Program-made: the position numbers and the translations under genes
Shown: positions 1,976 to 28,885 of the stretch, piece after piece
Position numbering within the stretch: position 1 is the first letter of the stretch
Layout of the letters: each line of letters starts with the position of its first letter
The notes under the pieces: generated by a model
Database searches by the model: none
Seen by the model: only the letters and a program-made list of their open reading frames with translations
What the model was told of the DNA's origin: nothing
Source: Amycolatopsis sp.
GTDB taxonomy: Bacteria > Actinomycetota > Actinomycetes > Mycobacteriales > Pseudonocardiaceae
Direction of reading: 5' to 3'
Assembly: GCA_035551175.1 (NCBI GenBank)
Contig: DASZNR010000154.1
Span: forward strand, 17,194 to 81,193
Length of the DNA stretch: 64,000 nt

Positions 1976-2293
1976 ATGCCGAAAGTGAGCTACCAACTGC
2001 CCGACGGAACCACGCACGATCTCGAAGTCCCTTGTGGACAGAGCGTGATGGACGGCTCCGTGCGCAGCAACCTGCCCGGCATCGTCGCCGAATGCGGCGG
2101 CGGCTGCTCGTGCGCCACTTGCCACGTCTATCTCGAAGAAGGAGCGTCCTTTTTCGACGAACCGACGGACGAGGAGCGGGAACTGCTCGAGTTCGCCGAG
2201 GACGCGCGGCCCAACTCCCGGCTGTCGTGCCAGCTGATCCTCACCGAGTCCTGCTCGGGCGTGCGCGTCACGGTCCCCGATTCCAACGGCTAG
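1976..2293 (+). CDS. [2Fe-2S] ferredoxin (putidaredoxin/adrenodoxin type)
   Basis: 105 aa with the cluster motif CGGGCSCATCHV plus a downstream Cys in SRLSCQL. RBS-like GGAGA lies upstream of the ATG. It sits directly after the reductase. Confidence 0.9.
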   Translation: MPKVSYQLPDGTTHDLEVPCGQSVMDGSVRSNLPGIVAECGGGCSCATCHVYLEEGASFFDEPTDEERELLEFAEDARPNSRLSCQLILTESCSGVRVTVPDSNG

Positions 2294-5035: not shown

Positions 5036-5830
5036 ATGGACGAGTTCACCGACATCAGCTACAAGGTCGAGGACGGCCTGGCCTGGATCACCATCAACCG
5101 GCCGGAGCGGTACAACTCGTTCCGCGCCCGCACGGTCGACGAGCTGGTGAAGGCGTTCAAGAAAGCCTGGGGCAGCGGCGAGGTCGGCGTCATCTGCCTG
5201 ACCGGCGCGGGCGACAAGGCGTTCTGCACCGGCGGCGACCAGAAACAGCGCGCCGAGACCGGCGACTACGGCCCCTCGGACTCCGGCCTGTTCGAGATCG
5301 ACGCTCTGCACCACGTCATCCGCGACGTGCCCAAGCCGGTGATCGCCGCGGTGAACGGCTTCGCCATCGGCGGCGGCCACGTGCTGCACGTGCTGTGCGA
5401 CCTCACGATCGCCGCGGACACCGCGAAGTTCGGCCAGAACGGGCCGCGCGTCGGATCCTTCGACGCCGGGTTCGGCACCGGCTACCTCGCCCGCATCCTC
5501 GGCGAGAAGCGCGCCCGCGAGGTGTGGTTCCTCTGCCGCCGCTACACCGCGGCCCAGATGGAGAACTGGGGCCTGGTCAACAGCGTCGTGCCGCAGGAGG
5601 ACCTGTACCAGGAGGTGCGCACCTGGGCGGACGAGATCCTCTCCCTGTCCCCCACCGCGCTCAAGGTGCTCAAGCAGTCGTTCAACACCGACACCGAGCA
5701 GTTCGCGAGCACCGGGCAGCTGGCGTACTCCTATCTGCACTCGTTCGGCGAGTCCGAGGAGGCGCAGGAGGGCATCAAGGCGTTCAACGAGAAGCGCAAG
5801 CCCGACTTCGCCCCGTACCGCGGCAACTGA
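5036..5830 (+). CDS. crotonase-superfamily MenB/BadI-family enzyme (candidate 2-ketocycloalkyl-carboxyl-CoA ring-opening hydrolase)
   Basis: 264 aa. Signature stretches [27 protein letters not shown] and [12 protein letters not shown] are typical of MenB/BadI. No men genes are nearby, and the context is catabolic. Confidence 0.85.
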   Translation: MDEFTDISYKVEDGLAWITINRPERYNSFRARTVDELVKAFKKAWGSGEVGVICLTGAGDKAFCTGGDQKQRAETGDYGPSDSGLFEIDALHHVIRDVPKPVIAAVNGFAIGGGHVLHVLCDLTIAADTAKFGQNGPRVGSFDAGFGTGYLARILGEKRAREVWFLCRRYTAAQMENWGLVNSVVPQEDLYQEVRTWADEILSLSPTALKVLKQSFNTDTEQFASTGQLAYSYLHSFGESEEAQEGIKAFNEKRKPDFAPYRGN

Positions 5831-5835
5831 GCGGA

Positions 5836-5849
5836 AACGAGCGTTATCA
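5836..5849. promoter_or_regulatory. operator-like motif AACGAGCGTTATCA (inverted copy of 4945-4958)
   Basis: Exact 14-nt reverse complement of 4945-4958. It occupies the 21-nt gap between the BadI-like stop and the ACAD start (ATG 5852). Confidence 0.5.
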
Positions 5850-5851
5850 CG

Positions 5852-6988
5852 ATGCGTTTCACGAAGGAACAGGAAAGCTTCGCCGCCGCGGTGCGCGCGT
5901 TCTGTGAAGCCGAGTGCGGCACGCTCGCCCAGCGGGACGCGCTCACCGACGGCGGGAAGCTCTCCAACAGCCCGGAGATCCTGCGCAAGCTCGCCGCACA
6001 AGGCTGGCTCGGGGTCTCGATCCCGGAGGCGTATGGCGGCGGCGGGGCCGGCATGGTCGAAGAGTGCCTCTTCCTGGAGGAGACCTCGCGCGGGCTGGCC
6101 CCGATCACCGGGTACTCCACCGGTCTGACCGCGGGCCAGACTTACCTGCGGTACGGCACCGAGGAACAGAAGAAGGACATCCTCGGCGGGCTGTGCGCCG
6201 GGGCACTGGAGGCGATCGCGCTGTCCGAGCCGGGTGCGGGCTCGGACCTCGGTTCGGTGCGGATCAAGGCCGTGCCGGACGGCGATCACTACGTCGTGGA
6301 CGGGCAGAAAACCTGGACGTCCGCGGCGCACGTCGCCAAGCACCTGCTGTTGCTGGCTCGCACCGACTCGAGCGGGCCGAAGCACCAGGGCCTGACGCTG
6401 CTGATCGTGCCGACCGACGTGCCGGGTCTGGAGATCCGGCCGATCGAGACGATGGAAGCGCACACGGTCAACGACCTGTTCTTCACCGGCGTGCGGATCC
6501 CGGCGGCGAACGTCGTCGGCGAGGTGGGCCAGGCTTGGAAGCACCTGATGCGCGGGCTGAGCGTTGAACGGCTCATCATCGCCGCGATGTCGCTCGGCGC
6601 GGCCGAGCGTTCGCTGGACGACCTGCTCGGCTACGTCAAGCAGCGCGAGCAGTTCGGCCGCACCATCGGCAGTTTCCAGGCGGTGCGGCACCGGATCGCC
6701 GATCTGGCCACCGAAATCGCCTACGCCAAGGCGTTCGTCTACGACGTGGCCGCCCGGATCGACGCGGGCGAGGAGGACCAGCTCGCCCGGGAAGGATCGA
6801 TGGCCAAGCTCAAGTGCACGGAGATCGCCAAGCACACCGCACTGGAGGCCATGCAGCTCATGGGCGGCTACGGCTATGCCCGCGAGTACGGCATGGAAGG
6901 CCAGGTCCGCAAGGCGCTGGCACCGCCGATTTACGGCGGTACGAACGAAATCCAGCGCGAGATCATCAGCAAGAGCTTCGGGCTCTGA
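5852..6988 (+). CDS. acyl-CoA dehydrogenase
   Basis: 378 aa. It has an ACAD fold signature (ALSEPGAGSD, QKTWTS) and a C-terminal IYGGTNEIQREIIS with the canonical catalytic-base region. Confidence 0.9.
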   Translation: MRFTKEQESFAAAVRAFCEAECGTLAQRDALTDGGKLSNSPEILRKLAAQGWLGVSIPEAYGGGGAGMVEECLFLEETSRGLAPITGYSTGLTAGQTYLRYGTEEQKKDILGGLCAGALEAIALSEPGAGSDLGSVRIKAVPDGDHYVVDGQKTWTSAAHVAKHLLLLARTDSSGPKHQGLTLLIVPTDVPGLEIRPIETMEAHTVNDLFFTGVRIPAANVVGEVGQAWKHLMRGLSVERLIIAAMSLGAAERSLDDLLGYVKQREQFGRTIGSFQAVRHRIADLATEIAYAKAFVYDVAARIDAGEEDQLAREGSMAKLKCTEIAKHTALEAMQLMGGYGYAREYGMEGQVRKALAPPIYGGTNEIQREIISKSFGL

Positions 6989-7004
6989 CACGAGGGACCA
7001 TCGC

Positions 7005-7901
7005 ATGGCAACGACGAAGTCCGTGTTCGCGCCCGATCTCCTGGCGGGGCACCGCATCCTGATCACCGGCGGCGGCACCGGCCTCGGCCGGGGCGTCGCC
7101 GGGCACCTCACCGCGCACGGCGCGCAGGTCCATCTGTGGGGCCGCCGCGAAACGGTGCTCGCCGAAGCCGCCGAGGAGGCGGGCGAGCCGGGCACGGTGC
7201 ACTACCAGACCGTCGACGTCCGCGACGCGGACCAGGTGGACGCCGCGATGGCGGAGATCTGGTCCGGGCACGGGCCGCTCACCGGAGTGATCAACAACGC
7301 CGCCGCGAATTTCATCGCACCCACGAAGTCGTTGAGCGCGCGCGGTTTCGAGGCGGTCAGCTCGACGGTGATGAACGGTTCGTTCAACACCACGCACGCC
7401 GCGGGCCGGCGCTGGATCGAACAGGGCCTGCCGGGAGTGGTGCTGTCGACGCTGACCACGTGGGTCTGGAGCGGCTCGGCTTTCGTGGTGCCCTCGGCCA
7501 TGGCGAAAGCGGCCGTCCACGCGATGACGATGTCGCTGGCGGTGGAGTGGGCGCGGTACGGGATCCGGCTCAACGCGCTGGCTCCCGGGCCGATCCCGAC
7601 CGACTACGCCTGGGAAATGCTCAACCCGACCGACAAGAGCGGCGTCGGCGCGACCCAGGCCGACCAGGTGCCGATGGGCCGGATGGGCACGGTGGAGGAA
7701 TTGGCGAACCTGACCGTCTTCCTGCTGTCCGACGCTTGCCCGTACCTGACCGGCGAGACGATCGCGATGGACGGCGGCCAGCGGCTGGCCGGGCCGGGCA
7801 CCTTCGCTGGCCTGACCGCACTGTCCGACGAGGACTGGACGGAAATCAGGGAACAGAGCAAGAAGGCCAGCGCGGCGGCGAAGGCACAGCGCAGCGTGTG
7901 A
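7005..7901 (+). CDS. 2,4-dienoyl-CoA reductase-type SDR (DECR-like)
   Basis: ATG 7005. Motifs are ITGGGTGLG, NNAAANFIAPT, GSAFVVPSAMAKAAV and GRMGTVEELANL, which closely recall eukaryotic DECR1/2 from memory. Confidence 0.85.
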   Translation: MATTKSVFAPDLLAGHRILITGGGTGLGRGVAGHLTAHGAQVHLWGRRETVLAEAAEEAGEPGTVHYQTVDVRDADQVDAAMAEIWSGHGPLTGVINNAAANFIAPTKSLSARGFEAVSSTVMNGSFNTTHAAGRRWIEQGLPGVVLSTLTTWVWSGSAFVVPSAMAKAAVHAMTMSLAVEWARYGIRLNALAPGPIPTDYAWEMLNPTDKSGVGATQADQVPMGRMGTVEELANLTVFLLSDACPYLTGETIAMDGGQRLAGPGTFAGLTALSDEDWTEIREQSKKASAAAKAQRSV

Positions 7902-7908
7902 ACGGGTC

Positions 7909-7940
7909 GGGCCGCTTGCCTCGGGCGAGGCAAGCGGCCC
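7909..7940. terminator. bidirectional hairpin between convergent genes
   Basis: Perfect 14-bp stem GGGCCGCTTGCCTC / GAGGCAAGCGGCCC with loop GGGC. It lies between the SDR stop (7901) and the amidase stop (7944). There is no clear T-tract. Confidence 0.6.
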
Positions 7941-7943
7941 AGC

Positions 7944-9485
7944 TCAGCGCCCGCAGTCGAAGCCGCCGCTCGGGTCGGCGTAGCGGGCCTCGGACACGTT
8001 CGCCAGCGACTCCCCCAATTCCACCAATCCCGTTGAAATAGCGGCTACCGCTTCGTCTTCGGCGCCCTGCGCCGTACGCATCGGGGCGGCCGCGACCGGA
8101 GTCGGTGGCTCGTCGAGGTGGAACGCCGTGCGCTGCTGCACCGCGTCGCCGGCCCGCACGACCAGCCCTTCTTCCCACCGCCGCCCGGCCAGCGACAACG
8201 CGAGCGGCAGTCCTAGCCCGGAGAGCCCCATCGGGAGCACGAGCACCGGATTGCCCAACGGATTCCAATACGCCGTGTGCAGCGAGGTCATCACGCTGGT
8301 CGGGTCCAGGCCGGTGACCTCCGCCAACGACGGTGCGCCGAGGTGTCCCATCGGTGTGGCGATCAGGTCGACGGTCTCCAGCAGCGCGTCCATTTTCGCC
8401 TGAGCGACACGTCGGACCCGCATCGCTTGCAGGTAGTGCGCCGCAGTGATCGCCCGCGCGCTGCTGAGCAACACCCGGGTCGCCTGTCCGTAGTCGGCGC
8501 CGCGGGCACGCAGATCTCCCTCGTGGTAGCTGAGCGCCTCGGCGAGCATCACCACCGAGTCGATCGCCTGCAGTTCGGGGTACATCGGCAGGTCCACCGG
8601 CACGAGTTCCGCGCCCGCGTCGGCCAGCACGCCAAGCGCCGCCGCGAAGCAGCGCCCCGTCTCCGGGTCAGCCCGCGGGGCAAAGCGGTCGAGGTCGTCG
8701 ACTCCGACCCGCACGCCCCGGAGGTCGCCGGTGAGGCCGCCCAGGTAGTCGCCGGGCTTCGTCTCCGCGGCGTATGGGTCGGCTGGATGGTGCCCGGCCA
8801 GCACCGACAGCAGCAGCGCGCAGTCCCGTGCGCTGCGCGCCAGCGGACCGACATGGTCGAGGGTGTAGCTCAGCGGCACCATCCCCGCCTTCGGAACGCG
8901 GCCGAAGGTCGGCTTGAGCCCGGTGACACCGTTGAATCCAGCGGGCATCCGGATGCTGCCCGCGGTGTCGGAGCCGAGCGCGCCCAGCACCATCCCGGAC
9001 GCGACGCCGCTGCCGCATCCGGAACTTGAGCCACCGGCGTAGTGGGCGGAGTTCCACGCGTTGCGGGGCACCGGAAACGGCTTGCCGGGGTCGGGCACGC
9101 CGAGGGCGAACTCCATGGTGGTGAGCTTCCCGAGCACGATTCCGCCTGCGCGCCGCAGCCGGGCGACGGCCGGGGCGTCACCGATCCCTTCCGCCCAGCC
9201 GCGATCCAGCACCAGGCTTTGCGCCGTCGTGGGGCCGCCCTCGGCAGCCAGGATGTCCTTGACCCCCAAGGGAATGCCGTCGAGCGGGCCGACGGGCTCG
9301 CCGCGCGCGAACCGGTCGTCGGCCGCGCGGGCCGCCTCCCGGGCGCCGGCGTCGTCACGATGCAGGAAGACCCCGAGCACCGGGTCGAACGCATCCGCCC
9401 GCGCTATCGCCTCCTCGACCAGTTCCGCCGCGCTCGCCCGGCCCGCGCGCAGATCCGCCGCGGCACCGGTGATCGTCCTGATCAC
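7944..9485 (-). CDS. amidase (amidase-signature family)
   Basis: GTG 9485 overlaps the upstream stop (GTGA). It has the AS motif GGSSSGCGSGVA and the Ser-cisSer-Lys context GVKD...GSDTAGSIR. The longer track ORF to 10433 is a frame artefact. Confidence 0.85.
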   Translation of the reverse strand: MIRTITGAAADLRAGRASAAELVEEAIARADAFDPVLGVFLHRDDAGAREAARAADDRFARGEPVGPLDGIPLGVKDILAAEGGPTTAQSLVLDRGWAEGIGDAPAVARLRRAGGIVLGKLTTMEFALGVPDPGKPFPVPRNAWNSAHYAGGSSSGCGSGVASGMVLGALGSDTAGSIRMPAGFNGVTGLKPTFGRVPKAGMVPLSYTLDHVGPLARSARDCALLLSVLAGHHPADPYAAETKPGDYLGGLTGDLRGVRVGVDDLDRFAPRADPETGRCFAAALGVLADAGAELVPVDLPMYPELQAIDSVVMLAEALSYHEGDLRARGADYGQATRVLLSSARAITAAHYLQAMRVRRVAQAKMDALLETVDLIATPMGHLGAPSLAEVTGLDPTSVMTSLHTAYWNPLGNPVLVLPMGLSGLGLPLALSLAGRRWEEGLVVRAGDAVQQRTAFHLDEPPTPVAAAPMRTAQGAEDEAVAAISTGLVELGESLANVSEARYADPSGGFDCGR

Positions 9486-10498
9486 GAGGCCGCTTGCTCG
9501 GCCGCTGCCAGGAACGACTTCACGAGTCCGGAGTCCGCGTAGTACTCGTCCCCCACACCTTGCACGGCCCGCCGTCGCCCGTATTCGTACAGGACAGCCA
9601 GCTTCCACAGCGCCAGCGCGGTGTACCAGCCCAGGCCGGACAGATCCCGTCCGGTCTGGTCCGCATACCGCTCGGCCAGCTCGGCCCGCGTGGGATAACC
9701 CTCCTCCAGCGCCGCGACCCCGAGGTCTTCGGTCGGCGTCCGCACCTGTCCGGCGACCGGCCAGGACGCCAGGAAGTAGCCGACGTCGAACAGCGGGTCC
9801 CCGAGCGTGGCCAGTTCCCAGTCGAGCACCGCGAGAACACGTCCTGGCGAATCCGGGGCGACGATCACGTTCCCCAGCCGGTAGTCGTTGTGCACGATGG
9901 TCGCCCCCGCCTCGGCGGGCACGTGCGCGGCGAGCCACGCGTCGATCGCGGCGAATTCCGCGGGCGGCTTGCCGTCGCCGTCGGCGATGAGACGACCCAT
10001 CCGGCGGAAGTGCCGGGCGTTGAACCCCTCCGGCCGGCCGAGATCTCCCAGCCCGCGCGCGACCCAGTCCACTGAGTGCAGGGTGGCCAGGGTGTCCGCA
10101 AGGGACTCGCCGATCCGCCGCCGGTCGGCCGGAGTGTCCAGCTCGGGAGGCGTGCGTTCGGTGATCACCGGCCCCTCGACGTAGCTCATCACGTAGAACG
10201 GCACGTCGAGCACTTCGCCCGGTTGTCCGGTGGCGAGCACCTCGGCCACCGGAACGCCGGTCCCCGCCAGCGCGCCGATCAGCTTCGCCTCCCGCAGCAT
10301 GTCGTGCGCCCCGGGCGGGGTCGGCGGCGGAGGCGGACGGCGCACGACGGCCTGCCGCTGTCCGTCGCTGACCAAGAACGTCAGGTTGGAGTGCCCGTCG
10401 CCGATCCGCCGCGTGCTGACCGGACCCGAGCAAATCCCTTTCCGGGCGAGGAAATCGGCCAGCAGGGCGCGCTGCTGCTCGCTCCAGTCCCAGCTCAT
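9482..10498 (-). CDS. phosphotransferase-family kinase (APH fold, ACAD10/11-N-terminal-like)
   Basis: ATG 10498 overlaps the upstream stop (ATGA). Motifs are GHSNLTF, HNDYRLGN (catalytic loop) and DWE. Confidence 0.85.
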   Translation of the reverse strand: MSWDWSEQQRALLADFLARKGICSGPVSTRRIGDGHSNLTFLVSDGQRQAVVRRPPPPPTPPGAHDMLREAKLIGALAGTGVPVAEVLATGQPGEVLDVPFYVMSYVEGPVITERTPPELDTPADRRRIGESLADTLATLHSVDWVARGLGDLGRPEGFNARHFRRMGRLIADGDGKPPAEFAAIDAWLAAHVPAEAGATIVHNDYRLGNVIVAPDSPGRVLAVLDWELATLGDPLFDVGYFLASWPVAGQVRTPTEDLGVAALEEGYPTRAELAERYADQTGRDLSGLGWYTALALWKLAVLYEYGRRRAVQGVGDEYYADSGLVKSFLAAAEQAAS

Positions 10499-11427
10499 CG
10501 ACCGCTCTCGATCAGGTGCTGCAGGTACTGGCCGGGCCAATGCGTCTCGAACTGCCCCGCACCTTCCTCGCCGTCGATGGTGACAGTGCAGGCGGCCTCG
10601 GTGATCACGGTGCCCATGGGGTCCTTGGTGGGCAGCTTGATCACGCCGTACGCGTCCATCACCAGCCGGGTGGTCTCGCCGGTGATGTCCACGACGTCCG
10701 CTTCAAGGTGCTTCTGCGTCATGTCGTCGTGGTACTCGGCGTGGTGCTTGATGTGCGAGACCGGCACCGTGACCCCGTCTTTGACCACGTACCCGGCGAA
10801 GCCCCATTCGCCGCGGGCGATCCAGATCCAGCCGTTGACGACCCGGCCGGATTCGGTGTAGGCGATGAACCACTTCCAGTGGTGCGGCACGCCCCAGTCG
10901 CGGGTGCCCCACGAATGGTCCCGGTGCCCCTTGCGGTCCAGGGAAATCCGCCGTCCGCCGGCCTCCAGGAACCCGGTCACGTGCCCGGTCTGCTCCAGCC
11001 GGTTGGCGGCGAACCACGACGGCAGCCCGTCGGGATTGCTCTTGTAGCTGAACGCGTCGTGCAGCGCGGTGAAGTCGAACTGCAGGTTCACTTCGTCGCT
11101 GACGTAGCTGACCTGCGCGGTGCGGCGCAGTTCCGGCTGCTTGACCGAGAGACCCTCGAACTCGAAGTTGTCCAAGTCCATCTCGTCGCCGACGGAGCCC
11201 TGCGCGAGCTTGAGCGCGACCGGTTCCTTGTCTGGGCCCCAAACCGAGACGTTGTAGCCGGTCTTGCCTCGGTTGGTCAGGTACAGGTAGACCTGCATGC
11301 CGAGGTGCTCGTCGGGCAGGATCATCTCCCAGAACAGCGAATCCCGCATCCGGCCGCCGGGCTCCGGCCAGTGCCGCAGGTCGTCGTGCGGACCGAAACC
11401 CGGGTCGATGTCGCCTAGGGTCACCAT
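10495..11427 (-). CDS. conserved hypothetical protein (possible AttH/CrtC-like beta-barrel; DHSWG motif)
   Basis: ATG 11427 gives 310 aa with strong G/C third positions and no TM segment. The motif HRDHSWGTRDWG is reminiscent of the DHxWG of AttH/CrtC-type hydratases. The family assignment is uncertain. Confidence 0.7.
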   Translation of the reverse strand: MVTLGDIDPGFGPHDDLRHWPEPGGRMRDSLFWEMILPDEHLGMQVYLYLTNRGKTGYNVSVWGPDKEPVALKLAQGSVGDEMDLDNFEFEGLSVKQPELRRTAQVSYVSDEVNLQFDFTALHDAFSYKSNPDGLPSWFAANRLEQTGHVTGFLEAGGRRISLDRKGHRDHSWGTRDWGVPHHWKWFIAYTESGRVVNGWIWIARGEWGFAGYVVKDGVTVPVSHIKHHAEYHDDMTQKHLEADVVDITGETTRLVMDAYGVIKLPTKDPMGTVITEAACTVTIDGEEGAGQFETHWPGQYLQHLIESGR

Positions 11428-11432
11428 CTTCG

Positions 11433-12248
11433 TCACCTTCCCGTGAACTGCGGCGCGCGCTTGTCCTTGAACGCCGCCAATGCCTCGGTCATGTCGTCGC
11501 AGCGGGTCAGCAGCGCCTGCCCGCGGTTCTCCAGCTCCAATGCCCCGGCGTAGCTCGCGACTTCTTGGTTGCGCTGCAGTGCCCGCTTGGACATCCGCAC
11601 GCCGCCGGGCGAGTTCCCGGCGATCTGCCGGGCTGTCTCCAGCGCCTCGTCCATCAGGTTCCCGCTCGGGACGACGCGGTTCGCCAAGCCGATCCGTGCC
11701 GCTTCCTCGGCGGCGACAACCCTTGCCGTGTAGGCGATCTCGGCCGCCCGGCCCGGACCGACGAGCCGGGTCAGCTGCCACGACGTGCCCAGCTCCCCCG
11801 CCGAAAGGCCGACCTTGACGAAGGCGGCGTTGAACTTCGCCGTCGGCGCGGCGAGCCGGATGTCCGCCGCCAGCGCGAGCGAAAGACCGCCGCCCGACGC
11901 GGCGCCGTGCACCGCCGCGATCACCGGGAACGGCAGCTCGCGGATGGCGGCCAGGCCACCGGTCGCGGTCTCCTGGAAGTGCAGGAACTCCCGCACGCCC
12001 ATCCGCGTGATCACGTCGATCTCGTCCAGGTCGAACCCCGCGCAGAACGCCCGCTCGCCGGCACCGGTCACGATCAGCGCGCGGGCCTTGCTGTCCCGCA
12101 TCGCCCTGGCCGCCGCGAGGAATTCGCCGAACATGCGCACCGTCATGGAATTCATCCGGTCCGGCCGGTTGATCCGCAGCACCAGCACGCCTTCCTCGGG
12201 CGATTCGAGCGTGAGGGTCCGCAGTTCCGGGACCTCGAAGTCGATCAT
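11433..12248 (-). CDS. enoyl-CoA hydratase/isomerase (crotonase)
   Basis: 271 aa with FCAGFDL and AAVHGAASGGGLSLALAADIR (oxyanion hole). Confidence 0.9.
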   Translation of the reverse strand: MIDFEVPELRTLTLESPEEGVLVLRINRPDRMNSMTVRMFGEFLAAARAMRDSKARALIVTGAGERAFCAGFDLDEIDVITRMGVREFLHFQETATGGLAAIRELPFPVIAAVHGAASGGGLSLALAADIRLAAPTAKFNAAFVKVGLSAGELGTSWQLTRLVGPGRAAEIAYTARVVAAEEAARIGLANRVVPSGNLMDEALETARQIAGNSPGGVRMSKRALQRNQEVASYAGALELENRGQALLTRCDDMTEALAAFKDKRAPQFTGR

Positions 12249-12259
12249 GGCGGGCTCCC

Positions 12260-13066
12260 TCAGCGTCCAGTGAACTTCGGCGCGCGCTTCTCCTTGAAGG
12301 CAGCCAGCGCTTCGGGCATGTCCTCGCTCCGGGTGAGCAGTGCCTGCCCGCGGTTCTCCAGTTCCAGCGCGGCGGCGTACGAGGTGATCTCCAGGTTCGC
12401 CTGCAGCGCCCGCTTGGACAGCTGCACGCCGCCGGGCGAGTTGGCGCGGATCAGCCGGGCCATCGCGATGGTCTCGTCCAGCAGCTTCTCTCCGGGCACC
12501 ACGCGGTTGACCAGCCCGATCCGCTCGGCCTCCTCGGCGAACACGAACCGTCCGGTGTAGGCGATTTCCGATGCGAGCGCGGGGCCGATCAGCCGCGGCA
12601 GCAGCCAGGACGAGCCGAGATCGCCCGCCGACAGTCCGATGCGGACGAAGGCGGCGTTGAACTTCGCCGACTCGGCGGCCAGGCGGATGTCCGCGGCCAG
12701 CGCGAGCGCCAGACCGCCGCCCGCGGCCGCCCCGTTGACCGCGGCGAGGACCGGGATGCGCAGCGACCGCAAGGCCGACAGCGCGCGGACCGCGTGTTCC
12801 TGCCGTTCCAGCATGCCCAGCGCGGTCAGCCCGGCCAGCTCGTCGGCGTCGTCGAGGTCGTATCCGGCGCAGAACGCCTTGCCGGCGCCGGTGACGATCA
12901 GCACCCGGGTGTCATCGTCGTCGCCGAGCGCGAAGGCCAGTTCCTCGAGCTCGGCGAACATGCGCACCGTCATCGAGTTCAGGGACTCCGGGCGGTTGAG
13001 CGTCGCCACCACGATGCCCTCTTCGGGCCGGGACAGCTCCAGCGTCTCCGGTTTCAGCTCCGCCAT
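12260..13066 (-). CDS. enoyl-CoA hydratase/isomerase (crotonase), paralog of 11433-12248
   Basis: ATG 13066 overlaps the upstream stop (ATGA). Motifs are FCAGYDL and AAVNGAAAGGGLALALAADIR. The two share the same C-terminal ...AFKEKRAPKFTGR. Confidence 0.9.
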   Translation of the reverse strand: MAELKPETLELSRPEEGIVVATLNRPESLNSMTVRMFAELEELAFALGDDDDTRVLIVTGAGKAFCAGYDLDDADELAGLTALGMLERQEHAVRALSALRSLRIPVLAAVNGAAAGGGLALALAADIRLAAESAKFNAAFVRIGLSAGDLGSSWLLPRLIGPALASEIAYTGRFVFAEEAERIGLVNRVVPGEKLLDETIAMARLIRANSPGGVQLSKRALQANLEITSYAAALELENRGQALLTRSEDMPEALAAFKEKRAPKFTGR

Positions 13067-14082
13067 CAGCGCATTCCCTCCACAATGGACTCTGTCGCGT
13101 CCTCGGCTTCTTCGGGCTTGAGCCCCCACGGCACGCTGACGAGGTTCAGATGGTCGTAGTCGCGCGCGTGCACCGCCACGCGTTCCTTGAGTTCGCCGGG
13201 ACGGCAGGCCACTCCGACGGCGTCGATCGCCTCGTCCGGCACCGCAGCGGCCATCGCCTCGGGATCCCGGTTCCGCGCCGCCTCCCGGATCCGGTCCTGA
13301 GCTTCGGTCCAGCCGTGTAGCGCGAAAAGCCGGTCGTACACGCGGGAAGCGGCGTACTGCGCGACGGCGAAGGCCAGGCGGCGGCGTGCCGCCTCTTCGT
13401 CGGAATCCACTGCGCACATGAGGATGCCCATCAGCTGCACGTCGCTCGCCGCGCGGCCGGAGTCCGTCAGCCCCTTGGCCAGGCCCGGCCGCACGACCTC
13501 CCGCACGTAGGCGGAGGTGAACATCGGATGCCCGACCAGCCCGTCCGAGACCCGGCCCGCCACGCGCAGCATCAGGGGGTTGACCCCGGCGGTCCAGATC
13601 GGCAGGTTCTCCTGGACCGGCGGCGGGGTGTCGGAGGTGGGCTTGAGCCGGACCCGGTAGAACCGACCCTCGTGCTCGACCGGCCCCTCGTGCAGGCGCC
13701 AGAGCTTGCGCAGCACGGTGACCAGCTCCTCCATCCGGGCGGCCGGGGCCTCGCCGCTGACGCCGTGCCAGTCCTCCATCATCCGCGGGGTTCCGTTGCC
13801 CAGCCCGAGGGTGAGCCTGCCGCCGGACAGCTCGTCGAGGTCGCGCGCCTCGGCGGCCCACACGAGCGGGGTGCGGCCGACCCCGTAGGCGATGTTGCTG
13901 CCCAGCCGGACCCGGCTGGTGGCGTTCGCCAGCACCGCGAGCGGCACGGTCACCGACCGGTTGTACAGCTCGTTGGCCCACACCGCGGAGAATCCGGCCT
14001 TCTCGGCCCTGGCCGCGAGGCCGGCGAGCCGCCGGTAGCGCTCGGGTCCGCTGCCCGCGCTGAACACGGTCAGTCCGTACAT
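13066..14082 (-). CDS. luciferase-like (LLM class) flavin/F420-dependent oxidoreductase
   Basis: 338 aa with an N-terminal pattern typical of LLM enzymes (AEKAGFSAVWANELY ... RLGSNIAYG ... RLTLGLGNG). Confidence 0.85.
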   Translation of the reverse strand: MYGLTVFSAGSGPERYRRLAGLAARAEKAGFSAVWANELYNRSVTVPLAVLANATSRVRLGSNIAYGVGRTPLVWAAEARDLDELSGGRLTLGLGNGTPRMMEDWHGVSGEAPAARMEELVTVLRKLWRLHEGPVEHEGRFYRVRLKPTSDTPPPVQENLPIWTAGVNPLMLRVAGRVSDGLVGHPMFTSAYVREVVRPGLAKGLTDSGRAASDVQLMGILMCAVDSDEEAARRRLAFAVAQYAASRVYDRLFALHGWTEAQDRIREAARNRDPEAMAAAVPDEAIDAVGVACRPGELKERVAVHARDYDHLNLVSVPWGLKPEEAEDATESIVEGMR

Positions 14083-14092
14083 TCCTGTCCTC

Positions 14093-15262
14093 CTAATCCG
14101 CGACCGCGATCGCGCCCGACCGCCGCCAGTCCCGCATCCGCTGCCCGCTCACGCCCCAGTCCCGCAGCGCTTGTTCCGTGTGCTCTCCCGGCGCGGGCGG
14201 CGGATGGCCGAGCGCGGCCGGGGTCCGGCTGAATTTCGGCGCCGGCGCGGGCTGCACCAGCCCGTCTTTGTCCACAAAGGACTTCCGCGCCACGTTGTGC
14301 GGATGTCGCGGTGCTTCGTCCACGTCGAGCATCGGTGCCACGCAGGGAGTTCGCCCCTCGGCGAGCCGCACCCACTCGTCCCGTGTGCGGGTGCGCACGG
14401 CGTCGGCGAACAGCTTCCGCAGCCGCGGCCAGCCGGTCTTGTCCTCGCGATCGGGCCGGTCGGCGGGCAGGCCGAGCAAGTCGGCGAGATCGTCGTAGAA
14501 CCGCTCTTCCAGCGCAGCCACGGAAAGCCAGCGCCCGTCCGCGGTCTCGTAGACGTCGTAGTACGGCGCGCCGCTGTCGACCAGGTTCGTGCCGCGCTCG
14601 GGATTCCACGCGCCGGTCTGCGCGAAGCCGAAGAACGCCGTGCCCAGCAGCGCGGCTCCCTCGACCATCGCCGCGTCGACCACCTGTCCTCGCCCGGACC
14701 GCTGCCGTTCCAGCAAGGCCGCGAGCATTCCGAGCGCCAGCAGGTATCCGCCGCCGCCGAAGTCGCCGACGAGGCTCAGCGGCGGAGTCGGCGGCTGTCC
14801 CTGGCGGCCGATCAGCGAAAGCACCCCGGACAGCGCGACGTAGTTCAGGTCGTGCCCGACCGCCTGCGCCAGCGGGCCGTCCTGGCCGAAACCGGTCATC
14901 CGCCCGTAGACGAGCGCCGGATTGCGCGCCAGGCACTCTTCGGGTCCGATGCCCAGCCGTTCGGCAACTCCGGGGCGGAACCCTTCCATCAGGGCGTCGG
15001 CCCGCTCCACGAGGTCGAGTACCACGGCAGCGCCGTCGGGGTGCTTGAGGTCGACCGCGACCGACCGGCGACCGCGATGCAGCAACTCGGTGCGAAAATC
15101 CGCGTTCGGCCCGACCAGCGCGGCACCCGCTGCGCGGTCGATCCGGAGCACGTCGGCGCCGAGATCGGCCAGCAGCATGGCGCAGAACGGTCCCGGGCCG
15201 ATCGAGCCGATCTCGATCACCCGGATGCCCGCGAGCGGTCCTGCCACGGCGTCGCTCCTCAC
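14093..15262 (-). CDS. mcr: alpha-methylacyl-CoA racemase (family III CoA-transferase fold)
   Basis: GTG 15262 overlaps the upstream stop. It shows long collinear similarity to M. tuberculosis MCR as I recall it (GIRVIEIGSIGPGPFCAMLLADLGADVLRIDR, GFRPGVAERLG, GHDLNY, LVGDFGGG, GQVVDAAMV). Confidence 0.85.
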   Translation of the reverse strand: MRSDAVAGPLAGIRVIEIGSIGPGPFCAMLLADLGADVLRIDRAAGAALVGPNADFRTELLHRGRRSVAVDLKHPDGAAVVLDLVERADALMEGFRPGVAERLGIGPEECLARNPALVYGRMTGFGQDGPLAQAVGHDLNYVALSGVLSLIGRQGQPPTPPLSLVGDFGGGGYLLALGMLAALLERQRSGRGQVVDAAMVEGAALLGTAFFGFAQTGAWNPERGTNLVDSGAPYYDVYETADGRWLSVAALEERFYDDLADLLGLPADRPDREDKTGWPRLRKLFADAVRTRTRDEWVRLAEGRTPCVAPMLDVDEAPRHPHNVARKSFVDKDGLVQPAPAPKFSRTPAALGHPPPAPGEHTEQALRDWGVSGQRMRDWRRSGAIAVAD

Positions 15263-16026
15263 GCGAAATTCGGCGGCCGCTTCGCCAGGAAGGCAGAGAG
15301 CCCTTCCTGCGCCTCACCGGACTCGAACAGCTCCTGTTCCTGCTCGACCTCGAACCGGAAACCCTGCTCCAGCGGCAGATCGAACGCGGCGTCCACGGTG
15401 CGGATCACCGCCTGCTGCGCGGGCAACGACAGCCCGGCCAGCTCTCCGGCGAGGTCGAGCGCGGCCTTCTCCGCCGTCCCGGCGGGCACCAGCCGGTCGA
15501 TCAGGCCCATCGCGTGGGCTTCCTCGGCGGGCACCTGGCGTCCGGTGAGCATGATGTCCAGCGCACGGCCCCGGCCGACCAGCCGCGGCAGCCGCTGGGT
15601 GCCGCCCGCACCGGGGATGAGGCCGAGTTTCACTTCCGGCAGCCCGAATTTCGCGGCGGCCGAGCCGACCCGCAGGGAGCAGGCCATCGCCAGTTCCAGC
15701 CCGCCGCCGAGGGCGAGGCCGTCCACCGCGGCGATCGTGATCCGGTCCGGCGAAGCCACCCGGTCGAGCAAGCCACGCAGCTTGTCGCCGTACTCGGTGA
15801 ACGACTTCGCGTCGATCGAGGACATGTGCTTGATGTCCGCGCCCGCGGCGAAGAAGCCCGGCACCTCGGACGAGATGACCACGACCTTCGCGTCCGCCGC
15901 CTCGTCGAGCGCGGCATGCAGCCCGTCGATGATGGGCAGTCCCAGCGCGTTGGCCGGCGGGCGCTTCAGCGTGCAGACCTCGACCCCCGCCCCGGCGGAG
16001 CGGCGCACGACCACGTTGTCGCTCAT
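15259..16026 (-). CDS. enoyl-CoA hydratase/isomerase (crotonase)
   Basis: ATG 16026 gives 255 aa with FFAAGADI and AAVDGLALGGGLELAMAC. Confidence 0.9.
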   Translation of the reverse strand: MSDNVVVRRSAGAGVEVCTLKRPPANALGLPIIDGLHAALDEAADAKVVVISSEVPGFFAAGADIKHMSSIDAKSFTEYGDKLRGLLDRVASPDRITIAAVDGLALGGGLELAMACSLRVGSAAAKFGLPEVKLGLIPGAGGTQRLPRLVGRGRALDIMLTGRQVPAEEAHAMGLIDRLVPAGTAEKAALDLAGELAGLSLPAQQAVIRTVDAAFDLPLEQGFRFEVEQEQELFESGEAQEGLSAFLAKRPPNFA

Positions 16027-16039
16027 GATGAACCTTTCG

Positions 16040-16864
16040 TCAGGGACGGCGCGGGAACCGGCCGAAGTCCGGCGTGCGCTTGTCCTGGTAGGCCTCGCGG
16101 CCCTCCTTGGCTTCCTCGGAGGCGTAGAAGAGCAGGTTGGCGTCGTGCGCCAGCTGCTGGATCCCGGCCAGCCCGTCCTCGGCGGCGTGGAAGCTCGCCT
16201 TGAGCATCCGCAGCGCGAACGGCGAAAGCGCGAGCATTTCCCGGCACCACCGCACGGTCTCGGCCTCCAGGTCCGCCAACGGCACGACGGTGTTGACCAA
16301 GCCCATCTCCAGTGCCTGCCGGGCGTCGTACTGGCGGCACAGAAACCAGATTTCCTTGGCCTTGCGAGCGCCCACCAGGTTCGACAGGAGTCCGGCGCCG
16401 AACCCGCCGTCGAACGAGCCCACCCGCGGCCCGGTCTGCCCGAACCGCGCGTTGTCGGCCGCGATCGCCAGGTCGCAGACCAGCTGGAGGACGTGCCCCC
16501 CGCCGATGGCGTATCCGGCGACCATCGCGACCACCGGTTTCGGCAGCCGCCGGATCTGCACATGCAGGTCGGTCACATGGAACCGGCCGGGCTTTCCCGG
16601 CTCGGACAGATACCCGGTGTCGCCGCGCACCCGCTGGTCGCCGCCGGAGCAGAACGCCAGATCTCCCTGCCCGGTAAGGACGATCACGCCGATTTCAGTG
16701 TCTTCGCGGGCCGCTTCGAGCGCGTCGGAGATTTCGACGAGCGTCTGCGGGCGGAACGCGTTGCGCACCTCCGGACGGCAGATGGTGATCTTGGCGATGC
16801 CGTCCCCGCTGTAGTCGAGGCGGATGTCGTCGTAGTCGCCGATCTTCTTCCAGTCCACGCTCAC
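16040..16864 (-). CDS. MenB/BadI-family crotonase (second paralog; candidate beta-ketoacyl-CoA ring hydrolase or DHNA-CoA-synthase-like)
   Basis: GTG 16864 overlaps the stop of the BadH-like SDR (GTGA). Motifs are [27 protein letters not shown] and [12 protein letters not shown]. Confidence 0.85.
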
Positions 16865-17619
16865 GCCATGGTCAATCCGCCGCTGACGGACAGGGTCTGG
16901 CCGGTGATGTACTCGGCGGCGTCGGAGGCGAAGAACGCCACCGCGGCGGCGACGTCGCTCGGTTTGGCCAGCCGCTTCATCGGCACGCTGCGCACCATGC
17001 CGCCCAGGACCTTGTCCGCGTCCTGGCCGGAGCTGTCGGCGAACTTGCGCAACGCCGGGGTGTCGGTCGGGCCGGGGCACACCGCGTTCGCCGTGATGCC
17101 CTTGGTGGCGACTTCGCGGGCGAGGGTCTTGGTAAAGGCGATGATGCCGCCTTTCGCGCCCGAGTAGACCGCTTCGAGCGACGAACCGACGCGGCCGGCG
17201 TCCGAGCCGATGTTGACCACCCGGCCGAAGCCGCGCTCGATCATGCCCGGCACGACGGCCTGGATGACCCTCAGCGCGCCCTTGAAGTTGATGTCCAGGA
17301 TGCGGTTCCAGAAATCCTCGTCGGTGTCGACGAACTTCATGAAGTCGTCCCAGCCGGCGTTGTTCACCACCACCTCGATCGGGCCGAGTTCGTCGGTCAC
17401 GGTCTTGACCGCGGCCCGGACCGACGAGGTGTCGGTGATGTCGGTCCGCACGGCGAGGGCGGTGCCGCCGGCCTCGGTGATGGCCTTGGCGGTCGACTGC
17501 GCTGCTTCGAGGTTCAGGTCGGCGATGGCCACCTTGAAGCGCTGTTCGCCCAGGGTCAGCGCGATGCCCTGCCCGATGCCCTGCGCACCGCCGGTGACGA
17601 GCGCGACGCGGTTGCTCAT
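16861..17619 (-). CDS. SDR, 2-hydroxycyclohexanecarboxyl-CoA dehydrogenase (BadH)-like
   Basis: 252 aa with [38 protein letters not shown] and [14 protein letters not shown]. This pattern matches my memory of R. palustris BadH closely. Confidence 0.85.
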
Positions 17620-17632
17620 GAGGTGTTTCCTC

Positions 17633-18550
17633 TCAGTTCCAGTTGACGGGTCCGGCGACGATGGAATGGCTGGTCAGCTTGCGGCCCAAGGTGTCCTGCG
17701 CGGCGCGCGCGGCGTCGATCAGGCCGGGCAGCGACAGGCCGGTCTCCACGCCCATTTCGTGGAACATGCTCACCAGGTCCTCGGTGGCGATGTTGCCGGT
17801 GGAGCCGGGCGGAACCGGGCAGCCGCCCAGCTCGCCGAAGCTGGACTCGAAGCTGGCGCAGCCCGCTTCCAGCGCGGCGAAGGCGTTGGCCAGGCCCTGT
17901 CCTCGGGTGTTGTGGAAATGCGCGGTCACCTCGACGCCGGGCAGCCGCTCCAGCGCCGCGGCGAAGAACTCCGCTACATAGGCCGGATTCGCCATGCCGG
18001 TGGTATCGCCGAAGCCGATCTCGGCGGCCCCGGCCTCAGCGAACCGCTCAGCGAGCCCGAGCACCCGCTCCAGCTCCACCTTGCCCTCGTACGGGCAGCC
18101 GAACGAGGTGGCGATCACCGCGGCGCAGTCCAGGCCCTCGGTGTTGATCCGGGCGGCCATCTTGTCGTTGTCGGCCATGGTTTCCGCGACTGTGCGGTTG
18201 ACGTTCTTCTTGTTGTGCGTCTCCGAAGCGGACACGAAGATCGCCGCCTCGTGGAACTTCTCGCGCACTTTCAGCGCGTTGTCCAAGCCCCTGCTGTTCG
18301 GGATCAGCACCATCAGCTTCACGTCGTCGGGCACGTCGATGCCGTGCAGCACCTCGATCCCGTCGGACAATTGCGGGATCACGTCCGGCCGGACGAAGCT
18401 GGCCACCTCGATGCGCTTCAGCCCGGCCTGGGCCAGCGCGTTGATCAGCCGGATCTTGTCCGCCGTCGGGATGTGCTCCGGTTCGTTCTGGAAACCGTCG
18501 CGCGGGCCGACTTCGCGGACGTGCACGCGGCTCGGTCGCCGGCTGGTCAT
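17633..18550 (-). CDS. hydroxymethylglutaryl-CoA lyase-like (HMGL family)
   Basis: ATG 18550 overlaps the upstream stop (ATGA). Motifs are EVGPRDGFQNE, HFHNTRG and GGCPVPPG..GN. Confidence 0.85.
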   Translation of the reverse strand: MTSRRPSRVHVREVGPRDGFQNEPEHIPTADKIRLINALAQAGLKRIEVASFVRPDVIPQLSDGIEVLHGIDVPDDVKLMVLIPNSRGLDNALKVREKFHEAAIFVSASETHNKKNVNRTVAETMADNDKMAARINTEGLDCAAVIATSFGCPYEGKVELERVLGLAERFAEAGAAEIGFGDTTGMANPAYVAEFFAAALERLPGVEVTAHFHNTRGQGLANAFAALEAGCASFESSFGELGGCPVPPGSTGNIATEDLVSMFHEMGVETGLSLPGLIDAARAAQDTLGRKLTSHSIVAGPVNWN

Positions 18551-26826: not shown

Positions 26827-26830
26827 GGTG

Positions 26831-28003: not shown

Positions 28004-28022
28004 GGGTCAACCCTTCACGTCG

Positions 28023-28879: not shown

Positions 28880-28885
28880 GCGCGG

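Follow-up and report, generated by a model that had tools for sequence, protein, structure and literature searches.

The window analysed here, a 64,000-nucleotide stretch of an Amycolatopsis sp. genome (contig DASZNR010000154.1, positions 17,194 to 81,193), contains between positions 5 and about 34100 what is probably an island for the catabolism of a branched alicyclic compound with a ring methyl group. The best candidate substrate is a p-menthene-type monoterpenoid (limonene, alpha-terpineol), which would be degraded via perillate or oleuropeate. The island combines an upper operon with a CYP108-family cytochrome P450, a short-chain dehydrogenase/reductase (SDR) similar to the 2-hydroxycyclohexanecarboxyl-CoA dehydrogenase BadH, two crotonases of the MenB/BadI family, and a candidate lower pathway with a 3-hydroxy-3-methylglutaryl-CoA (HMG-CoA) lyase. 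The crotonase encoded at 5036-5830 is proposed to be the core ring-opening hydrolase. The other one, encoded at 16040-16864, is a MenB by sequence and is tentatively considered a second, lineage-specific hydrolase.

A sequence-only reading of the window had suggested a CoA-dependent hydrolytic ring-opening route of the perillate or monoterpene type. The CYP108 operon upstream, its conservation in Protofrankia, the parallel with the mrc (monoterpene ring cleavage) cluster of Castellaniella defragrans 65Phen, and the presence of a racemase together with an HMG-CoA lyase support this suggestion, in which the substrate and the enzyme activities keep the status of predictions. As the window has about 70% G+C, genes were called by third-position GC; all open reading frames (ORFs) named in the earlier reading were recovered. 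Families were assigned by NCBIfam and Pfam profile scores, whose E-values of 1e-60 to 1e-130 place the matches at the family level and above chance.

Two crotonases of the MenB/BadI family

A neighbour-joining (NJ) tree of MenB/BadI-family proteins with 60 bootstraps was constructed. The references were the MenB proteins of E. coli and Geobacillus (from PDB alignments), MenB from the men locus of Solirubrobacter, three BadI proteins called by PGAP, and an MrcE-like protein of Azoarcus sp. KH32C, identified by gene order as the protein reported to be 88% identical to MrcE of C. defragrans (PMC4109377). The tree consists of three clades: MenB (60 of 60 bootstraps), BadI together with the MrcE-like protein (60 of 60), and a clade containing 5036-5830 (59 of 60). 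The last two are sisters in 43 of the 60 bootstraps. The BadI clade includes neither of the window crotonases. Its signature, His91, Asn135, Val162 and Pro164 (E. coli MenB numbering), was derived here from four reference sequences and has no published definition.

The two proteins had earlier been described as BadI-like paralogs. Both indeed belong to the MenB/BadI family. However, 5036-5830 represents a third clade next to BadI and MrcE, and 16040-16864 lies inside the MenB clade in all 60 bootstraps, with every MenB residue and none of the BadI signature. Clustering with bona fide MenB, named in the sequence-only reading as the outcome that would speak against it, is thus what was found for 16040-16864, and the BadI-like label of this protein is not supported by its sequence.

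The product of 5036-5830 scores below the cut-off of every equivalog profile: 342.5 bits against 380 for MenB NF005637, 317.4 against 342.7 for MenB TIGR01929, and 329.3 against 467.6 for BadI TIGR03210. It is 52-55% identical to both MenB and BadI, and 50% identical to 16040-16864. MenB Tyr258 is replaced by Gly, and Thr155 by Asn. The positions of the BadI-clade signature are occupied by Arg91, His135, Phe162 and Ala164, and the signature is thus absent. A gene of this type is present in every version of the island with sufficient flanking sequence. In Frondihabitans, it lies in the same operon as the BadH-type SDR, three genes after it; in Protofrankia, the ortholog (81% identity) is situated between the P450 operon and the BadH-type operon. 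The MenB-type gene is missing from four island versions (Protofrankia, Frondihabitans, Mycobacterium paragordonae and Streptosporangiaceae), where the SDR is directly followed by a hydratase. Thus 5036-5830 may be regarded as the constant partner and candidate core ring-opening hydrolase of the island, and 16040-16864 as an insertion in a subset of lineages.

The next two genes encode an acyl-CoA dehydrogenase (ACAD) and an SDR-type 2,4-dienoyl-CoA reductase (DECR). The three-gene unit with a eukaryote-like reductase, noted earlier, is confirmed: the best solved relative of 7005-7901 is the human mitochondrial DECR (1w6u, 202 bits). The reductase is conserved at 77-81% beside the 5036 paralog, and the whole trio 5036-7901 is conserved on a Rhodococcus ruber plasmid and in Gordonia. 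Outside the actinomycetes, the closest relative of 5036-5830 (60% identity) is encoded in Azoarcus sp. KH32C (pAZKH 522330-547106), apart from the Mrc-like cluster of the same plasmid. This Azoarcus region also holds a BadH-like SDR, a large CoA-transferase, an SDR, an ACAD, genes for electron-transfer flavoproteins and an ABC transporter.

In its catalytic residues, equivalog scores and sequence identity, 16040-16864 resembles MenB of type I (bicarbonate-dependent). It passes both MenB equivalogs (NF005637, 453.7 bits with a cut-off of 380; TIGR01929, 390.2 with a cut-off of 342.7); with the BadI profile TIGR03210 it scores 264.6 bits, the cut-off being 467.6. It is 64-65% identical to MenB of E. 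coli (3T88/4ELS) and Geobacillus (2IEX), 81% identical to MenB of the Solirubrobacter men operon (locus menE-menB-menA-menC...menD), and 77-87% identical to MenB from 59 loci that carry menE, menA, menC or menD. All MenB catalytic residues are retained: Gly86 and Gly133 (oxyanion), the equivalent of Tyr97, Gly156, Ser161, Asp163 and Tyr258. The signature positions contain Arg91, His135, Phe162 and Gly164.

Unlike MenB, this protein has no men neighbours, and its gene is translationally coupled within a beta-oxidation-type operon that is also found on plasmids. In a tblastn search of the window with MenA, MenC, MenD and MenE from a real men operon, only MenE produced matches, and these were to generic acyl-CoA ligases (27-31% identity), in agreement with the earlier observation that menaquinone genes are absent. 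The coupling to the SDR gene noted earlier was also observed, as the stop codon TGA of 16861-17619 and the start codon GTG of 16040-16864 overlap by four nucleotides (the minus strand reads ...ATGGCGTGAGCGTGG). A hydratase gene follows directly on the minus strand, so that the gene has the genomic partners of a badI, a BadH-type SDR and a hydratase. The same slot between the SDR and the hydratase is occupied in eight genera, including Amycolatopsis, Nocardia, Gordonia, Intrasporangium, Citricoccus and Pseudonocardia, and on the R. ruber plasmid. Among the 80 closest genomic relatives, 59 have men genes as neighbours, 12 are standalone genes among housekeeping genes of Actinomycetes, and nine lie in or beside the island. 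About seven clusters at the 90% identity level among the best 120 relatives bear the name Amycolatopsis; such sparse occurrence would fit an accessory gene better than a genus-wide MenB. Judged by its context, 16040-16864 is not a stray housekeeping gene: the slot and the translational coupling are kept across orders, and the gene rides on a Rhodococcus plasmid.

One possibility, which we put forward tentatively, is that an unaltered MenB has a catabolic function, opening the ring by retro-Dieckmann hydrolysis in partnership with the BadH-type dehydrogenase, and has spread with the island across actinomycete orders and plasmids. The reaction of MenB is the exact reverse of that of BadI, and because of this the unchanged catalytic residues do not exclude hydrolase activity. 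The candidate substrate would be the same alicyclic 2-oxo-acyl-CoA as that of the 5036 paralog, or a second, fused-ring or MenB-substrate-like intermediate. On the other hand, 16040-16864 might be a working MenB for menaquinone, captured by or simply lying in the catabolic operon, with the ring opened by 5036-5830 alone. This seems rather unlikely, even with the equivalog scores, the high identity to MenB from the 59 men loci, the complete set of catalytic residues and the four island versions devoid of the gene in its favor. No alignment column separates the embedded copies from the men-operon and standalone ones (threshold 75% versus 15%), and this too is in favor of a menaquinone function. 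However, a captured menaquinone gene does not readily account for the four-nucleotide overlap with the SDR gene, for the same slot across genera, or for the travel with the island on a Rhodococcus megaplasmid in a window with no other men gene; genes of this type occur in only a handful of Amycolatopsis species among thousands of relatives, and the reversed chemistry leaves hydrolase activity possible.

Other ideas about this gene were dropped. A visibly neofunctionalised MenB was rejected, as no separating residue was found. A single origin of the embedded copies was not recovered in an NJ tree of 84 sequences (poorly resolved at about 80% identity), where they are not monophyletic and are mixed with standalone actinomycete MenB. 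Finally, reverse action of MenB on 1,4-dihydroxy-2-naphthoate (DHNA) or in naphthoquinone catabolism was judged, by reasoning only, to be thermodynamically unlikely and to have no supporting genes.

Relatives of 5036-5830 and 16040-16864 with at least 80% identity have been automatically named, by different public sources, naphthoate synthase, 1,4-dihydroxy-2-naphthoyl-CoA synthase, 2-ketocyclohexanecarboxyl-CoA hydrolase or enoyl-CoA hydratase-related protein. Inconsistent naming of both paralogs is a systematic annotation problem.

The BadH-type dehydrogenase

The similarity of the SDR encoded at 16861-17619 to BadH had been proposed from sequence motifs. All four of them are present in the alignment. 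The best family is TIGR03206 (BadH), at 310.6 bits; this is below the equivalog cut-off of 431.2 and 81 bits above FabG (229.4). The protein is 45-51% identical to four SDRs encoded beside a PGAP-called BadI or the MrcE-like gene, which share 52-55% with each other across classes; its identity to the FabG-like SDR encoded in the same operon is 36%. Thus it is closer to the partners of BadI and MrcE, and the clustering with FabG-type enzymes that had been suggested as a counter-indication was not observed.

The upper operon

The genes of the P450, ferredoxin reductase, [2Fe-2S] ferredoxin, alcohol dehydrogenase (ADH) and aldehyde dehydrogenase (ALDH) lie on the same strand immediately upstream of 5036. 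The P450 shares 69.9% identity with P450tol of Rhodococcus coprophilus (7v40, 403 bits) and 49% with P450terp (CYP108A1, 260 bits), both values covering the C-terminal 245-249 residues only, as the N-terminal part is outside the window. P450s with more than 40% amino-acid identity are assigned to the same family, and by this rule the protein belongs to CYP108 over its C-terminal part; by its similarity to P450terp, P450tol would be a member of CYP108 as well. The series of five genes reportedly matches the composition of the P450terp operon, said to have been described by Peterson et al. in 1992. Unlike that operon, the one in the window continues into ring-cleavage genes, and only the C-terminal 250 amino acids of its P450 are available.

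CYP108 enzymes hydroxylate the ring methyl group of limonene (producing perillyl alcohol), alpha-terpineol, p-cymene and toluene, and CYP108N12 initiates the degradation of p-cymene (PMC11279926, PMC13627977, PMC11219674). Members of the family, to which P450terp of Pseudomonas sp. and CYP108N12/N14 of Rhodococcus globerulus belong, hydroxylate alpha-terpineol, limonene and p-cymene at C7.

The ADH gene is kept together with the P450 gene in two further loci (L088 and L097), and the ALDH is 74-79% identical in the same loci. In Protofrankia, the genes of the P450 (76% identity), ferredoxin reductase, ferredoxin (73% identity, also with Fer2), ADH and ALDH are found next to those of the 5036 ortholog and the DECR-like SDR and to the minus-strand BadH-type operon.

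Proposed pathway and alternative substrates

Every step of the pathway is predicted from sequence and genomic context. Firstly, the CYP108 P450 with its reductase and [2Fe-2S] ferredoxin would hydroxylate the ring methyl group, and the ADH and ALDH would continue the oxidation to a cyclohex-1-ene-1-carboxylate, from which the AliA-like ligase would form the CoA ester. Saturated or dienoyl rings could be converted to the 1-ene by the ACAD 5852-6988 and the DECR-like SDR 7005-7901. Secondly, a crotonase would hydrate the ring, and the BadH-type SDR 16861-17619 would oxidise the 2-hydroxyl. Retro-Dieckmann hydrolysis of the resulting 4-substituted 2-oxocyclohexane-1-carboxyl-CoA by a MenB/BadI-family enzyme would then yield a 3-substituted pimeloyl-CoA, the constant candidate for this step being 5036-5830, with the MenB-type 16040-16864 as a second hydrolase in some lineages. 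Finally, one round of beta-oxidation (heteromeric ACAD, hydratase, SDR 20957-21697, thiolase) would produce a 3-substituted glutaryl-CoA. Dehydrogenation and hydration would convert it to an HMG-CoA analogue, to be split by the HMG-CoA lyase into acetyl-CoA and a beta-keto acid; the latter would be re-activated by the CoA-transferase or the ACS-like ligase, and the product cleaved by the thiolase. The racemase 14093-15262 could act at the branched centres, and dienoyl rings or an isopropenyl-glutaconyl intermediate would be suitable substrates of a 2,4-dienoyl-CoA reductase.

The scheme explains the lyase, the CoA-transferase, the ACS-like ligase and the thiolase, because a 3-substituted glutaryl-CoA would become an analogue of HMG-CoA. 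The presence of the racemase and the HMG-CoA lyase speaks for a branched skeleton of the substrate.

Several observations weigh against a monoterpenoid substrate or against parts of the scheme. The closest characterised relative of the P450, P450tol, acts on toluene, which is aromatic. Around the plasmid copy in R. ruber, the 77 kb inspected contain no P450. Other branched or cyclic acids would be just as compatible with the racemase and the lyase. No step could be assigned to four conserved proteins (APH kinase, DUF7064 protein, F420 oxidoreductase and amidase), and none of the proposed steps needs a kinase. In 16040-16864, there is no trace of adaptation to a function other than that of MenB. 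The reductase 7005-7901 has no match among the SDRs encoded near the Azoarcus Mrc-like genes, and thus its parallel with MrcC is limited to size and annotation.

Among other substrates, unbranched cyclohexanecarboxylate or naphthenic acids, degraded by a bad/ali or chcpca-type route to pimeloyl-CoA, seem improbable. Such a route would employ the BadH-type SDR, the MenB/BadI-family enzymes, the AliA-like ligase and the PimC/PimD-like ACADs. Moreover, badH and badI of Rhodococcus aetherivorans BCP1 are induced by cyclohexane- and cyclopentane-carboxylate (PMC5906575), and bad-ali clusters are widespread in aerobic actinomycetes (PMC9795900). However, the gene order and the regulator (FadR/GntR rather than TetR) differ from chcpca, and unsubstituted rings require neither the HMG-CoA lyase, the alpha-methylacyl-CoA racemase and the DECR-like reductase, nor an operon of CYP108, ADH and ALDH for methyl oxidation. 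For alkyl-substituted naphthenic acids, this alternative and the terpenoid one overlap.

A still less probable alternative is a bicyclic or polycyclic substrate (decalin-type naphthenic acid, sesqui- or diterpenoid, steroid-like fragment), whose successive rings would be opened by the two hydrolases, the HMG-CoA-lyase-type enzyme removing an acetyl unit from a tertiary alcohol between the ring openings. Many island versions do carry two paralogous hydrolases, a MenB with its pocket unchanged could well accommodate an analogue of DHNA-CoA with fused rings, the heteromeric ACAD and the MaoC pair are similar to those of steroid catabolism (side chain and rings), and an Mce operon is located in the same window. 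Nevertheless, versions with a single hydrolase exist, the CYP108 relatives act on monocyclic C7-C10 substrates, and steroid-ring genes (IpdAB, EchA20, KstD/KshA types) are absent from the families scanned in the window. Cleavage of ring B of oestrogens or other steroids, considered since BadI occurs in edc/aed clusters, was rejected, as there are no extradiol dioxygenase or steroid-ring genes beside the operon.

It is very improbable that the upper operon supplies an aromatic pathway, from toluene or p-cymene to benzoate or p-cumate, and that the CoA genes belong to unrelated lipid beta-oxidation. The nearest characterised P450 is indeed P450tol, and CYP108N12 starts p-cymene degradation; but no dioxygenase for ring hydroxylation or ring cleavage and no benzoyl-CoA genes of the box type are among the families scanned in the window, and the P450 operon is kept beside the 5036 paralog and the BadH-type operon across orders.

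Comparison with known systems

The proposed monoterpenoid pathway has its closest parallel in the mrc cluster of C. defragrans 65Phen, studied by transposon mutants and proteomics. This cluster comprises a trio similar to BadK, BadH and BadI, an ACAD, a 295-aa dienoyl reductase required for growth on limonene, a MaoC pair and, next to these, a lyase and an ACAD (PMC4109377). Its homologue on pAZKH of Azoarcus sp. KH32C adds a gene similar to acetoacetate-CoA ligase. The predicted functional types shared with the island are ring-methyl oxidation, ADH and ALDH, CoA ligase, hydratase, BadH-type SDR and BadI-type hydrolase; then the ACAD, the dienoyl reductase of about 295 aa, the MaoC pair, the lyase and the acetoacetate-CoA-ligase-like gene, all of them conserved together. 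The hydrolases and the SDR are overall 44-53% identical to the Mrc-like proteins (SDR 16861-17619, 51% to the MrcD-like protein; 5036-5830, 53% to the MrcE-like one). The differences are that the host of the island belongs to another phylum, that a P450 monooxygenase replaces the oxygen-independent limonene dehydrogenase CtmAB, that an enzyme of the HMG-CoA lyase family replaces the CitE-like lyase, and that the hydrolase falls in a separate clade. The window also adds the MenB-clade enzyme, the racemase, the APH kinase and the F420 oxidoreductase.

The bad/ali pathway of cyclohexanecarboxylate degradation has been established by genetics in Rhodopseudomonas palustris and Aromatoleum sp. CIB (PMC9795900). 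In aerobic actinomycetes, bad-ali clusters are widespread, and a badI annotated as naphthoate synthase has been reported beside badH in Rhodococcus and Corynebacterium (PMC5906575, PMC9795900), including the chcpca cluster of R. aetherivorans BCP1 with its inducible badH (PMC5906575). Thus the earlier statement that such routes are characterised mainly in proteobacteria was overstated, and the island is not a first for actinomycetes; it is an actinomycete version of an established pathway type. Common features are a BadH-type SDR beside a MenB/BadI-family enzyme, an AliA-like ligase, an AliB-like ACAD and a hydratase, as well as oxygen-independent chemistry used by aerobes. Unlike bad/ali and chcpca, neither of the window paralogs reaches the BadI equivalog score, the regulator and the gene order differ, and the island, which includes a P450 upper operon and a lower pathway based on a lyase, is much larger (BCP1 being compared by description only).

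The lower pathway resembles the Liu/Atu systems of leucine and acyclic-terpene degradation, which have methylglutaconyl-CoA hydratase and HMG-CoA lyase: here, too, an HMG-CoA-lyase enzyme is encoded beside hydratases, a CoA-transferase and a thiolase. We infer that the lyase is used, as in Liu/Atu, to pass a beta-branch. Unlike these systems, no biotin carboxylase was seen in the window, and the second carboxyl would come from ring hydrolysis and not from carboxylation.

In the literature searched, we found no described actinomycete cluster for perillate or limonene ring cleavage, and no description of the larger island with its CYP108 upper operon, distinct hydrolase clade, HMG-CoA-lyase lower pathway and MenB insertion in many lineages.

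Distribution of the island

The proteins of the window are 99% identical to those of Amycolatopsis echigonensis JCM 21831. Synteny of the operon, with 60-90% protein identity, extends to Nocardia, three Gordonia genomes, Intrasporangium, Citricoccus, Pseudonocardia and a metagenome-assembled genome (MAG) of Streptosporangiaceae; Protofrankia and Frondihabitans have syntenic operons as well. The gene order of the minus-strand operon is unchanged in Nocardia, Gordonia, Intrasporangium, Citricoccus and Pseudonocardia. Many proteins are 75-90% identical across Pseudonocardiales, Mycobacteriales, Frankiales and Micrococcales. The island resides on the linear megaplasmid pmega_1 of R. ruber MSA14 and on a plasmid of M. 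paragordonae. Relatives of both crotonases with at least 80% identity are numerous in soil metagenomes, where one cluster of the 5036 family at the 90% identity level has 947 members.

Beside the island, pmega_1 of R. ruber carries two genes of the 2-hydroxyacyl-CoA dehydratase family and an acyl-CoA dehydratase activase (28264-31769 of locus L087; NZ_CP145320 226220-229725), followed by an SDR and a CoA ligase. This is the enzyme family of the ATP-dependent benzoyl-CoA reductases, and these genes have no counterpart in the window.

Organization of the island and neighbouring genes

The genes of the island are listed in Table 1. The plus-strand series begins with the P450 gene, cut at the window start, and continues through the ferredoxin reductase, [2Fe-2S] ferredoxin, zinc-dependent ADH, ALDH and crotonase 5036-5830 to the ACAD and the SDR. 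It is followed by a minus-strand operon of 16 genes, running from 24012 down to 7944, in which 10 of the 15 junctions overlap by one or four nucleotides. Its order is small ACAD, large ACAD, FabG-like SDR, thiolase, CoA-transferase, HMG-CoA lyase, SDR 16861-17619, crotonase 16040-16864, hydratase, CaiB-family protein, F420 oxidoreductase, two hydratases, DUF7064, APH kinase and amidase. Past the regulator are the ACS-like ligase, the PimC-like ACAD, the MaoC pair, two ligases (one of them AliA-like), a hydratase and a zinc-dependent dehydrogenase. The AliA-like ligase, alpha-methylacyl-CoA racemase, HMG-CoA lyase and several hydratases listed in the earlier reading are all present by family scores.

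Table 1. Predicted genes of the candidate island, with positions in the window
Feature	Position	Strand	Basis and remarks
CYP108-family P450, C-terminal 250 aa	5-757	+	gene runs past window start; identity to P450tol and P450terp
Ferredoxin-NAD(+) reductase, putative P450 redox partner	754-1962	+	NCBIfam HcaD-type reductase, 311 bits; 4-nt overlap with P450 stop
[2Fe-2S] ferredoxin	1976-2293	+	Pfam Fer2; start 1976 from ORF list
Zn-dependent alcohol dehydrogenase	2323-3432	+	NCBIfam class III/NDMA-type ADH, 228 bits
Aldehyde dehydrogenase, 484-aa GTG ORF	3429-4883	+	NCBIfam ALDH families, about 390 bits; 4-nt overlap with ADH stop
MenB/BadI-family crotonase, third clade; proposed core 2-oxo-cyclohexanecarboxyl-CoA hydrolase	5036-5830	+	profiles, tree, residues
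Acyl-CoA dehydrogenase (AliB/MrcB-like position)	5852-6988	+	NCBIfam ACAD; cyclohexane-1-carbonyl-CoA dehydrogenase, 176 bits
SDR-type 2,4-dienoyl-CoA reductase-like protein	7005-7901	+	best family NF005811, 225.7 bits (cut-off 318)
Amidase, last gene of operon	7944-9485	-	NCBIfam amidase, 260 bits; 4-nt overlap with upstream gene
APH-family phosphotransferase	9482-10498	-	Pfam
DUF7064/7065 protein	10495-11436	-	Pfam; start/stop overlap with APH gene
Two enoyl-CoA hydratases	11433-12248, 12260-13066	-	NCBIfam ECH
F420-dependent luciferase-like oxidoreductase	13066-14082	-	TIGR03617, 193 bits
Alpha-methylacyl-CoA racemase (CaiB family)	14093-15262	-	370 bits to M. tuberculosis MCR 1x74
Enoyl-CoA hydratase, candidate ring hydratase (BadK/MrcF role)	15259-16026	-	NCBIfam ECH
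MenB-clade crotonase, type I (Gly156)	16040-16864	-	translationally coupled to BadH-like SDR
BadH/MrcD-type SDR, 252 aa; proposed 2-hydroxy-cyclohexanecarboxyl-CoA dehydrogenase	16861-17619	-	TIGR03206 best family
HMG-CoA lyase family enzyme	17633-18550	-	NF004283, 329.2 bits (cut-off 246)
Acetyl-CoA hydrolase/transferase-family CoA-transferase	18547-19770	-	TIGR03948, 183 bits; Pfam AcetylCoA_hyd_C
Thiolase	19767-20960	-	TIGR01930, 426 bits (cut-off 240)
FabG-like 3-hydroxyacyl-CoA dehydrogenase	20957-21697	-	SDR families
ACAD large subunit	21697-22863	-	NCBIfam ACAD; 80-90% conserved
ACAD small subunit, without middle domain (heteromeric ACAD)	22963-24012	-	IpdE2/PimD-like; Pfam pattern of Frondihabitans ortholog agrees
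FadR/GntR-family regulator	24122-24901	+	NCBIfam; divergent from minus-strand operon; same position in all island versions
ACS/acetoacetyl-CoA-synthetase-like ligase	24904-26826	-	block 24904-28879, conserved on R. ruber plasmid and in Gordonia
PimC-like ACAD	26831-28003	-	block 24904-28879
MaoC/HadAB-like hydratase pair	28068-28879	+	block 24904-28879
Acyl-CoA ligase	28886-30505	-	block 28886-34112, conserved in R. ruber pmega_1 and locus L088
AliA-like ligase	30502-32145	-	TIGR03208, 410 bits (cut-off 792); block 28886-34112
Enoyl-CoA hydratase	32354-33139	-	block 28886-34112
Zn-dependent dehydrogenase	33132-34112	-	block 28886-34112

The HMG-CoA lyase is conserved at 79-86% in all island versions. 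The pair of APH and DUF7064/7065 genes is conserved in the islands of Mycobacterium, Rhodococcus, Gordonia, Streptosporangiaceae and Frondihabitans. In Protofrankia, the hydratases 11433-12248 and 12260-13066 form one fused protein. The only NCBIfam listing of 14093-15262 is as a CoA-transferase; this was rejected after comparison with PDB, which gave 370 bits to MCR and 139 bits to the best CoA-transferase.

The F420 oxidoreductase gene adjoins the MenB-type gene in Gordonia and Pseudonocardia, and was not seen in versions free of the MenB-type gene (M. paragordonae, Protofrankia, the Streptosporangiaceae MAG). In A. echigonensis JCM 21831, the gap between the APH and DECR-like genes is about 1.27 kb (positions ~17400-18650 of locus L007), compared with the amidase gene of 1.54 kb in the window and in a metagenome contig (L001). 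No full-length amidase match was found in the A. echigonensis contig, and the gene may be truncated or absent there.

Other genes of the window lie beyond the island. At 35925-38179 on the minus strand, an ACAD gene (35925-37163) is directly downstream of an APH-family phosphotransferase gene (37181-38179), beside a TetR regulator. This pair recalls LvaA/LvaC and ACAD10/11, in which, presumably, a 4-hydroxyacyl-CoA is phosphorylated and the phosphate is then eliminated. The minus-strand genes at 44097-47692 encode an alpha/beta-hydrolase, an Amidohydro_2-family protein and an aldehyde dehydrogenase in a row. Such a set is reminiscent of a lower meta-cleavage module or a decarboxylase module, but no dioxygenase for ring cleavage was seen in the vicinity. 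The minus-strand region 49182-61946 is a complete Mce-type lipid uptake operon with two MlaE permeases, an ABC ATPase and six MlaD-domain proteins with Mce4_CUP1 tails, then a 770-aa MMPL-like protein and a SurA/PPIase-like protein; an extracytoplasmic function (ECF) sigma factor is encoded upstream (62359-62985). Mce genes also adjoin the island copy on the M. paragordonae plasmid.

Implications

If 16040-16864 does function as a ring hydrolase in the island, a genuine MenB would be natively able to run ring opening, and many actinomycete menB annotations would mark catabolic genes. The island would then be a natural test of how little MenB must change to run in reverse.

Ring beta-oxidation of the perillate type via CoA esters is present on pathway maps, and its genetic support comes essentially from one betaproteobacterium. 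Genes for this process in aerobic Gram-positive bacteria are not known in the literature searched. For each of the steps that follow the known CYP108 hydroxylases, the island offers candidate genes, and it would address this gap. As it is highly conserved, plasmid-borne and abundant in soil metagenomes, it may represent a major soil route for the turnover of plant monoterpenes or alkyl-naphthenic acids.

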